Positions 29,401 to 32,400 of a stretch of 64,000 nucleotides of DNA are shown piece after piece. The position numbers were made by a program. Source of the DNA: Escherichia coli (GTDB lineage: Bacteria; Pseudomonadota; Gammaproteobacteria; Enterobacterales; Enterobacteriaceae). Location of the stretch: NCBI RefSeq assembly GCF_024700885.2, contig NZ_CP117016.1, one strand, 5' to 3'. How positions within the stretch are numbered: position 1 is the first letter of the stretch; every line of letters begins with the position of its first letter.

Positions 29401-32400
29401 TGCGCGATATTGTCACCAAAGCCCATAAACACGCGGCTCGGCGAATGAATGCCCAGCTTTTCGCTGAACCAGCCACTGATGCTGTCACCCATTCCGGTTA
29501 CACTGGATTTGAGCGACTCCCATTTGTTTTTGATACCGTTAATCAGACCATCGACAAGATGGCCACCGAAGTCGGTAAACTTTGCCGGCAGATCAACACC
29601 AAGATATTTCAGCGCAGCTGCAAAGGCTTTATAGAGCAGGCCTGCCGGCGACCAGTTAATCAGTAACTTACCAATTCCCACAATGCCGCCGTTAAAGGCT
29701 TCCTGAATGTCTGCCCAGCGCTGTTTAAACCAGCCACTGACTGCCCCCCAGTTGCGGTAGATAAGGTAAGCTGCTGCCGCGACAGCGGTGATAACGAGAC
29801 CGATGGGATTCATCATCAGCGCACGTCCAATCCAGAGAACAGCACGTCCGGCGAGCATAATTCCGCGAACCAGCCCCCCGGAGAGCACGCCACTCAGTGT
29901 TCTGGCTCCTCTGGCGACGGCGCTAAATCCGGTCACCAGCCAGCGGAGCTTACCGCCTTGCCCCAGTGCGAGCGACAGACGAAGCCAGTTGGCCCGAAGT
30001 AAAACAGCATTTTTCCAGACACTTACAAAGGGGGAAATAAGGAGATTCAGCCCCAGTTTGAGACCAACAGTCGCTATCTTAATCGCAAGGAGCGCACTGA
30101 TGAGCTTAAAAGCCCCACTGACAAATTGCGGGTGAGTCGCTACCCAGTGTTTTGCCCCCTGAATGAGTGGAAGCAGTTCCTGAGTCAAAGAAATAAAAGA
30201 TGGAGCTAATTGATCGCCCAGCGTAATTGCCAGATCGCGACTGCTGACCATAAGTGTTTTAGTGGCTTCAAGGGGAGATTTCAGCCGCTGATCATAAGCA
30301 CTGGCAAGCAAATCGTTATCCGCAGCCCTGAGAGCACCGGCACGGATCTCTCGATATCTGTCCATGTTGGCCAGCATCGGGCGGATAAATGCCATGACCT
30401 GCATATCCGCGAACATATCGCCCAGACCAAAGTTTTTCGCCAGAGCCTGAAGTGCCTCATCTCTTGCCGTATCATTCTTTATTTTCATGGCTGATTTGAA
30501 GCCGGCCAGCGCTTCGGGGCTTTTGGCATTGAGGTAACGTTCTATAACACTCAACATCCCTTCAATCGGAGAGATCCCCGCAGCTTTATAACTCGCAATA
30601 GATCCCTGCAAATCAATACCCAGATCAGCAAACTGTTTCTGAGTATCGCGGGCAAAAATTTTGGTAAGAAAGTTTTTAAAATTATTGGCTGCTTCGTCGG
30701 TGGAACCTGCACCGATTTTTGCTATCTGGAGACTGGCCCCGATTTCAGCAACAGCCTCTTTTCCACTGGCAATACCCGCCATCATTGGGGCCAGGGACTG
30801 CATCCACTTGACCTGATCCGGGATTTCAAATGACCCCTGGTCACCGGCATAAGCCATAATATTCTGAACGGCACCAAAATCTCTGGCCGCACCTTTCAGG
30901 GAGTTTTGCCAGACTGCGGCCACTTTTGCCCAGTCCTGAGCAGACGTGCGTGTTGCCGTTGCCGCGCGGGCAATATCCGGCATCAGAAAACCGATATCTG
31001 ACACATTATCAATATTGTCGCTGATGAGTGAACCCACCGCCTCCTGCAGCTCATCCTGATACTGATTGTATTTAAGCGCCCAGCCTTTTATCTGTCCGGC
31101 AAGTCCATCCCGCGTTTTATTGTCATATTTTGCGGTGATCGACATATCAATCATTTTGTCCTGAAAAGACATGGACTGCTGAACGGCAGGGGAAACCGTA
31201 TGATAAACAGTCTGTGCCATGCCATACGCTTCAATCCCCTGACCATACAGCGCCATGCGGTTAGCTTTCAGCGCATCACTGGTAGCGGATGCCGCTGACA
31301 GACGGCGCTGCTGGCGCTCAATTTGCTCCATGGTGCGGCTTACCCGCAGCAGCTCGCTGTTGAGATGCTGCATCCGGGAAGAACCCAGTTGACCATAACG
31401 TTCTGTTGCACGGGTTAAAGCGTTCTGACGTTCCTGCAGGCGGCGTGAGGTATCGCTCAGGGAATCAAGCGCACGGCGGGTACCGCTCATTGCAGAACGG
31501 AATGTGCTACCAATCATCCCGCCGATAACAACGCCGACTGAAAACTGTCCCGACATAGTGGTTAACCTCCGGGGAAGGTGAAAAGACGTGAGGGGATAAC
31601 GCAGAACAGCCGCTACTGGCGGCTGTCTGTACTATGATTTGTCGCCGTACTCGCTTTTTATTTGCTCTTCAGCCTGCTCCAGCCACATCTCCAGATCGTC
31701 AGTATCGAGGGCATCAATCTCCCCCGGCTGAAACCGGAACCATCTCGCCAGCAGCCCCTGCGCCTGCGTCAGCGCCCTAGTTGCTCTCACCCATCCCCGT
31801 GATGAGCTGAAATCGTTTCTGTAACTGCAGGTAATCAGCCAGATCCATATTGTCGAGATCTTCCGGGAGAAGACCAGTACTGCGGGCAATCAGCGGTTCG
31901 TCCCAGTCTGCCGGGTTTTTGCTGATTTTGCGCACCTGCTTCAGGTCTTTTACCGTCAGGCGTTTCAGTTCAACCTGCTCAATTCTGGTGCCTGCAGCAG
32001 TGGTGAAGGGATAAGACAATTTAAAAGTATCGGATGGGGTCTGTGACATGATTGTGCTCCTGTGTAAGTTCAGGGCAGTATGTCGGGAGAAGCGCGTGAC
32101 GGATATTAAAGGAGATTAAGAAGAAGGGGCCGGAGCCCCTGTGATGTCAGCAAGTGCGAAACCCCTTGCAGTTACGCAGGAAAGCGATGAGAAGCGTCTT
32201 TCCCTCAGATTTGCCGGTGCCGGAGAACCAGTGGTCGGGAGGCTCCCATGCTTCAATCAAATCCGCCAGTTTGCGGGCCTTTGAACGTGTGCAGTCAATC
32301 GGGTCATTGGTTTTACGGGTATTAAAAAGGGTTTCCACCCCCCGGAATATCAAGGAGGGTAAACCACGTACCATTTGACATGCCCAGTGCCGCACATCGT

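Follow-up and report, generated by a model that had tools for sequence, protein, structure and literature searches.

A candidate +1 ribosomal frameshift site, CGA_UUU_C, in the tail-chaperone genes of a BcepMu-like prophage of Escherichia coli and its relatives

A stretch of 64,000 nucleotides from Escherichia coli contig NZ_CP117016.1 (assembly GCF_024700885.2), hereafter the window, carries a BcepMu-like transposable prophage that bears a P2-type contractile tail module. Within this module, the gene for a gpE-like tail assembly chaperone (ORF1) is overlapped in the +1 frame by a second open reading frame (the +1 ORF), the conserved part of which we call E'. Comparison with related phages indicates that a +1 ribosomal frameshift at UUU_C probably makes a gpE-E' fusion protein, and the most likely direction of the shift is +1, not -2. 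All genes discussed are on the minus strand, and coordinates are given on that strand. The features on which the argument depends are the following.

31777..32049, minus strand: ORF1, gpE-like tail assembly chaperone, with an ATG start, 90 amino acids and a TAG stop at 31779-31777
32061..32057, minus strand: AGGAG Shine-Dalgarno sequence, the ribosome-binding site of ORF1
31777..31779, minus strand: zero-frame TAG stop of this allele, CAG in most copies according to the alignments
31787..31789, minus strand: TGA closing the -1 frame, from three-frame translation
31809..31815, minus strand: proposed +1 shift site CGA_UUU_C, with CGA at 31815-31813, UUU (Phe80) at 31812-31810 and C at 31809
31632..31808, minus strand: E' segment, to be translated in +1 once the shift has occurred, with 58 codons followed by TAG at 31634-31632 and a peptide conserved in +1
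31632..32049, minus strand: predicted gpE-E' fusion of 138 amino acids, composed of zero-frame codons 1-80 and 58 codons in +1, with no codon beginning at base 31809

ORF1 follows the tail tube gene (32953..32432) and precedes the tape measure gene (31556..28866). Its product matches the Pfam family Phage_TAC_7 of E/gp41/gp14 chaperones with 79.5 bits against a cut-off of 25 (E = 1.9e-22, residues 8-82), and it also matches phrog_166, annotated as "tail protein" (5.5e-30). In +1, the reading frame stays open from 31889 until the TAG at 31634-31632, and 75 nt separate this stop from the start of the tape measure gene at 31556. The overlap itself, the end of the +1 ORF just before the tape measure gene and the TGA in the -1 frame had been noticed in a preliminary description of this DNA, and three-frame translation agrees with it on all of these points. 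That description further held that a fusion, if made, would depend on a shift of +1 (or -2) and not on the usual -1. This is supported, as E' is in +1 in the window and in every relative examined, -1 is closed and the overlap contains no heptamer. Its term "non-canonical" is not to be taken in the sense of an unprecedented shift, given that +1 and -2 shifts are both known for the phage tail frameshift (PMC5009743).

The position of E' relative to ORF1 is the same wherever the pair was found. Frame scans or translations placed E' in +1 in each of the 108 distinct related loci examined, an E' hidden Markov model did so in 80 of the 80 loci of one search, and the downstream peptide ...AQGLLARWFRFQPGEIDALDTDDLEMWLEQAEEQIK... 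is always in +1 in the 58 viral contigs found with the ORF1 protein. This +1 peptide varies almost solely at its own synonymous positions, and the overlapping zero frame even gains stops. When the window is compared with Klebsiella phage KP12 along the E' stretch, the changes AGA/AGG, TTC/TTT and CGG/AGA are synonymous in +1, whereas the changes in the zero frame include a stop codon. The same frame layout was seen in a group of ~15-kb contigs at 54% protein identity, in the Burkholderia BcepMu group at ~29% identity, in a Salmonella cluster and in Ralstonia-type phages. Because E' remains in +1 throughout the relatives and its variation in that frame is synonymous only, the overlap between ORF1 and the +1 ORF is, on this comparison, not a product of chance. 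The E' peptide matches phrog_8286 (2.7e-34), a family of unknown function, and hhalign aligned it with the P2 E' over 30 columns at E = 2.3e-4; these profile comparisons make homology to the P2 E' extension likely, though not proven. The same chaperone pair, with AAA_CGA_TTT_CAG/CAA and E' in +1, was also observed on short IMG/VR contigs of ~13-18 kb (L126-L146 and many of L171-L237 in our collection), and this group of contigs possibly represents tail-only, tailocin-like clusters.

Codon use in ORF1 was evaluated in an alignment of 73 unique sequences, and the sequence context of the shift site was surveyed in 108 unique loci. The Phe80 codon is TTT in 73/73 unique sequences. Among codons 1-80 of ORF1 there are 19 conserved amino-acid columns, and all of them except Phe80 use two to five synonymous codons. 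The Burkholderia group has a high GC content, and TTT makes up 17% of the Phe codons in its flanking ORFs, yet it is found in 11 of 11 cases at the shift site. TTT_C is present in 108/108 unique loci, with exactly one in-frame TTT_C per ORF tail. The codon upstream of it is CGA in 96 of the 108 loci, or 96 of the 97 outside the Burkholderia group, and CGA contributes only ~6-7% of the Arg codons in flanking ORFs. The contexts in the 108 loci are CGA_TTT_CAG or CGA_TTT_CAA (86), CGA_TTT_CTG (9), CGA_TTT_CAT (1), CGG_TTT_CAG (1), TCC_TTT_CGC or GCC_TTT_CGC (10) and TCT_TTT_CGT (1). In the window, the only in-frame homotriplet sites in the overlap are AAA_C (31818), TTT_C (31812) and GGG_A (31797); the AAA and the base after the GGG are not conserved among relatives. 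A search of the overlap for a slippery site, which the preliminary description had recommended, thus yields CGA_UUU_C at 31815..31809 as the candidate.

The interval in which the frame must change is bracketed on both sides. Upstream, a +1-frame stop is located three codons 5' of the TTT in nine loci (a Ralstonia-like group), and downstream there is an invariant +1-frame Trp three to six codons 3' of the Phe. The BcepMu group narrows the position down. Its first +1 codon past the TTT is GCN in four synonymous variants, while the zero-frame codon overlapping this position takes six different amino acids. Upstream of the TTT in the same group, changes preserve the amino acid in the zero frame but are radical in +1. 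In this group, selection on the +1 frame begins directly 3' of the TTT codon. The shift site also coincides with the C-terminal edge of the Phage_TAC_7 domain, at about profile column 74 of 79. Features expected of a UUU_Ynn site that are found here are an in-frame TTT_C at 31812-31809, a +1 frame open to 31632 and no synonymous change at the UUU.

Several observations weigh against a shift at this site. The sequences are phylogenetically related, so the counts given above are not counts of independent events. In the enterobacterial groups, the first three to four +1 codons past the TTT vary non-synonymously and the zero frame is conserved, and these data alone would allow a shift a few codons later, for instance at GGG_A (31797-31794). 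The A-site codons CAG, CAA, CTG and CGC are common, and no "hungry codon" pause is therefore expected. No conserved RNA structure was found downstream, as the consensus folds of the 90 nt past the site differ among three groups (z-scores of -1.2, -0.3 and -0.2), and no Shine-Dalgarno-like stimulator was seen upstream on reading the sequences; given that no stimulator was found, the efficiency of the shift could be very low. The E' peptide scores 18.3 bits against Pfam Phage_P2_GpE (PF06528; E = 0.0016, profile positions 4-36 of 37), which is below the curated cut-off of 23. Neither candidate fusion sequence is present in a collection of 15 billion proteins, and the fusion in this phage group is a prediction from sequence.

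The enterobacterial pattern raises the question of whether the +1 shift takes place later, at GGG_A, where tRNA-Gly (UCC) would slip from GGG to GGA just 5' of the invariant Trp codon. This site is one of the three in-frame homotriplet sites of the overlap and immediately precedes the invariant +1-frame Trp; between the TTT and GGG_A, the enterobacterial groups are mainly under zero-frame constraint. We nevertheless consider a shift there unlikely. GGG_A is not conserved, its fourth base being C or T in most relatives, and the corresponding codon is GGC in locus L063 and AGC in the BcepMu group. The GGG is imposed by a +1-frame Gly codon, so its conservation needs no further cause, and in the BcepMu group the +1 selection sets in right after the TTT, ahead of the GGG_A position. 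A -2 shift on a run of G, as on CGG_GGG_CGA in phage Mu, would produce the same frame. A -2 shift is annotated as verified in the Mu record, where the sequence reads CGG GGG CGA; the window has ACGGGGATGGG and a run of five G at 31725-31721, which in the 111-amino-acid allele of ORF1 is still part of the zero frame, immediately 5' of the stop. However, the zero frame ends before this run in the window and in relatives of 102-109 amino acids. Purifying selection on +1 is already evident upstream of it, where ARWFRF changes only synonymously. Re-pairing after a -2 slip would land on CGG or CTG from the GGG at 31797 and on GAU from the UUU, none of which pairs, and the window protein matches only Phage_TAC_7, not Pfam Gp41_Mu. 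A -2 shift is thus very improbable here. The run of five G (31721..31725, minus strand; CCGGGGGAG), which resembles the Mu -2 site, encodes a conserved Pro-Gly of E', and it is probably not the shift site because it is downstream of where +1 selection begins.

E' could alternatively be a separate small protein made from its own start codon, with no fusion at all, which is how PGAP presents it ("GpE family phage tail protein"). PGAP calls a separate gene of 46-49 amino acids, PHROGs keeps the E' peptide as its own family, phrog_8286, and an in-frame GTG is present in the window at 31790-31788 with GGGGA before it. The preliminary description had named an independent start and ribosome-binding site for the downstream ORF as evidence against a fusion; we looked for both among the relatives, and neither a conserved start codon nor a conserved Shine-Dalgarno sequence for the +1 ORF was found. 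The GTG is GCA or GCG in most relatives, the ATG of KP12-type phages is ACG in the window, and the start used by PGAP in a copy identical to the window is CTG. In several relatives, a +1-frame stop downstream of the TTG at 31889 separates this codon from E'. Moreover, the invariant +1 Trp and the synonymous-only variation lie upstream of the candidate starts, and an independently started E' seems to us improbable. Transcriptional slippage by a stuttering RNA polymerase, or a decayed and unexpressed +1 relic, would also account for an open frame, and the prophage copy does carry further lesions: the TAG allele, and a frameshift in a neighbouring gene. Against these, there is no homopolymer of more than four bases within the permitted shift interval, and the frame layout and the peptide are conserved across enterobacterial, Ralstonia-like and Burkholderia phages with synonymous-only change, which is not expected of a relic. 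We regard this explanation as the least credible of those weighed here.

Three further candidates were rejected. A -1 frameshift would enter a frame closed by the TGA at 31789-31787, and no X_XXY_YYZ heptamer occurs in the overlap; the sole in-frame heptamer of ORF1, A_AAC_CCG at 31918, is upstream of the overlap and leads into the closed frame. A shift at the zero-frame stop (AAC_TAG_G) is not tenable, as the stop codon is CAG or GAA in most relatives and the position of the stop varies over 90-111 codons. Identity with the slip site of phage P2 was likewise discarded; the Phe codons are about three profile columns apart in a weak profile alignment of the E proteins (E = 0.1), and only proximity is claimed.

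For the preferred +1 shift at CGA_UUU_C, we propose the following mechanism. Most ribosomes would stay in the zero frame on ORF1, making free gpE the major product. On a minority of ribosomes, tRNA-Phe (anticodon GAA) in the P site would move one base forward from the UUU at 31812-31810 onto the UUC at 31811-31809, a slip that would swap a G:U wobble for a G:C pair. The AGC at 31808 would be read next, and translation would continue in +1 through E' to the TAG at 31634-31632, with the predicted junction ...LQLQKRF-SSSRGWVRATRALTQAQGLLARWFRFQPGEID... (constructed from the sequence). The intrinsic slip rate is probably low, as it is for bacterial UUU_Ynn sites, and the conserved rare CGA 5' of the UUU may assist from the E site. 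It is possible, though we hold it with some doubt, that the CGA is itself a part of the signal, its weak inosine:adenosine wobble loosening the frame in the E site, or in the P site one cycle earlier, and thereby promoting the +1 shift. If true, CGA_UUU_C would be a compact, stimulator-free bacterial +1 cassette, parallel to the UCC_UUU_CGU of the influenza A PA-X gene, and a search for it could reveal hidden +1 recoding in other genes. By analogy, the function of the pair is probably that of gpG/gpGT in phage lambda, in which case the shared N-terminus would bind the tape measure protein, the extension would recruit a tail subunit and the low slip rate would set the ratio of the two products.

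The zero-frame end of ORF1 differs between copies. The TAG of the window is 10 codons 3' of the proposed shift site. Escherichia phage PhiKM and most E. coli copies have CAG at 31777..31779, which results in a 111-amino-acid product and a 173-nt overlap, and in other relatives the zero frame ends after 102-110 codons. The 90-amino-acid allele was found on 914 contigs and the 111-amino-acid allele on at least 1,000. Since the TAG is downstream of the proposed shift site, the predicted fusion would be unaffected by this allele. Both stop alleles are common, which therefore suggests that the zero-frame tail past residue 90 is dispensable; the zero-frame end is evolutionarily loose. In the EcPF7 copy, which is identical to the window, PGAP calls ORF1 a pseudogene on account of an "internal stop".

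Tailed phages use -1, -2 or +1 shifts to make the pair of tail-assembly products, and the shift in Mu is -2 (Atkins 2016 review, PMC5009743). The locus in the window is a member of Phage_TAC_7; it lacks the defining features of the P2-type -1 and the Mu-type -2 shifts and fits the UUU_Y +1 class. The likeness to P2 is extensive, including the same gene order (FI sheath, FII tube, E, E', T, U, X, D), the shared N-terminal family Phage_TAC_7 and a similar E'-type extension, with a gpE+E' fusion of 142 amino acids in P2 versus a predicted 138 here. The experimentally known -1 site of P2 is GGT_TTT_TTG (T_TTT_TTG, in the FETUD operon), with its Phe at about profile column 77 versus about 74 here. 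The two differ in that P2 shifts -1 on a tandem heptamer, whereas here the shift would be +1 on a single slippery codon, CGA_UUU_C, with the -1 frame closed. Mu is likewise a transposable phage with a chaperone pair 5' of the tape measure gene and an extension in the +1/-2 frame. Mu, however, shifts -2 on CGG_GGG_CGA, while the window has no usable G run and a P2-type protein; Mu gp41 matches Pfam Gp41_Mu (9.1e-35) and the window protein does not, and CGA occupies the A site in Mu, whereas in the window it precedes the slippery codon.

In bacteria, UUU_Y sites are known to be prone to +1 slippage, and such a site is the apparent one in YopN-TyeA of Yersinia (PMC5009743). In influenza A PA-X the site is UCC_UUU_CGU, which has no evident stimulator and acts at a very low level, and mutation of the upstream UCC cuts its efficiency by 40-70% (PMC5009743). 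The candidate site shares with these UUU_Ynn sites (error frameshifting in E. coli, YopN-TyeA, PA-X) an in-frame UUU followed by a pyrimidine, the lack of an evident stimulator and a low expected efficiency, and the BcepMu TCC_TTT_CGC equals the PA-X UCC_UUU_CGU apart from the last base. The differences are in the gene and the organisms, and in the conserved rare CGA that the enterobacterial and Ralstonia-like phages have upstream in place of UCC. Immediately 5' of the tape measure gene of lambda, frameshifting at a low level yields gpG and gpGT, which have the same N-terminus, in a fixed ratio (PMC5009743). The functional logic of two chaperones with a common N-terminus in a set ratio is alike in the two systems; lambda differs in having no sequence similarity, a -1 shift and a non-contractile tail. 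No solved structure of a relative was found.

Existing annotation treats the locus differently. PGAP splits it into two genes and calls the +1 ORF a "GpE family phage tail protein" from a CTG start. The BcepMu record (AY539836; our L005, 4859..5364) lists a G-like protein, gp42, with gp43 as the product of slippage from it. Homology would make gp41 of BcepMu the E-like chaperone, with gp42 as the E' frame that a +1 shift from gp41 at TCC_TTT_CGC would open. For the related phage KS10, it was reported that no frameshift site was found (PMC2628397). A description of this frameshift in BcepMu-like phages was not found in the literature searched, a result that does not exclude a prior description. 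The phenomenon and the class of slippery motif are both known; their combination in a widespread phage group with a conserved CGA appears to be undescribed.

The nearest phage record to the prophage is that of PhiKM, which has 99.2% identity and is classified as Bcepmuvirus, and prophage-like DNA was found in 636 of 5,426 complete E. coli genomes. The neighbouring tail genes are as follows.

34380..32953, minus strand: tail sheath gene, upstream of ORF1
32432..32953, minus strand: tail tube gene (FII-like), Pfam Phage_tube (2.9e-53), upstream context
28866..31556, minus strand: tape measure protein gene, Pfam PhageMin_Tail (1.7e-20), the presumed client of the chaperones

Homologues of P2 gpU, gpX and gpD are encoded downstream of the tape measure gene. 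Elsewhere the window contains a Mu-type portal gene, an rve transposase gene with its AAA+ partner, genes for a baseplate J protein and tail fibres, and a gene for a resolvase-type invertase. This resolvase/invertase gene (20133..20834, minus strand) adjoins the tail fibre and fibre-assembly genes (21684..23971), an arrangement reminiscent of the Gin/G-segment host-range switch of Mu.

Some further observations concern the DNA on either side of the chaperone genes. A run of six G is present at 32335..32345 (minus strand), where PhiKM and KP12 have five. The extra G splits a small gene between the tube gene and gpE (phrog_1239, of unknown function) into ORFs of 35 and 82 amino acids, and PGAP labels an identical copy of the split gene as "frameshifted". 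Between this small gene and the gpE start, inside the expected single late operon, there is a terminator-like hairpin at 32125..32140 (minus strand), AGGGGC TCCG GCCCCT followed by TCTTCTT. A second hairpin, at 31606..31626 (minus strand), consists of ACAGCCGC ... GCGGCTGT followed by TCTGCGTT and is located in the 75-nt gap from the E' stop to the tape measure start. Its stems are kept in KP12 and in many viral contigs, where the loop is divergent, and it may be an attenuator or an element of messenger RNA stability.

The locus has so far been handled in three ways in annotation: as two genes, with one half as a pseudogene, or, in the BcepMu record, as a different frameshift pair. With a defined +1 site, a fusion protein that is probably indispensable to tail assembly could be annotated correctly. 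Tail clusters of a similar kind are found in other Proteobacteria as well. The direction of the shift may not surprise a specialist in recoding; the site is cleanly defined, widely conserved and often misannotated. As a natural stimulator-free UUU_C with a conserved upstream CGA, it would offer a simple system for the effects of neighbouring codons on bacterial +1 slippage. Furthermore, the homologous chaperones of P2 and of this phage group would acquire the same extension through slips in opposite directions at almost the same position. What is conserved would then be the requirement for both products in a set ratio, while the mechanism that provides them would be interchangeable.

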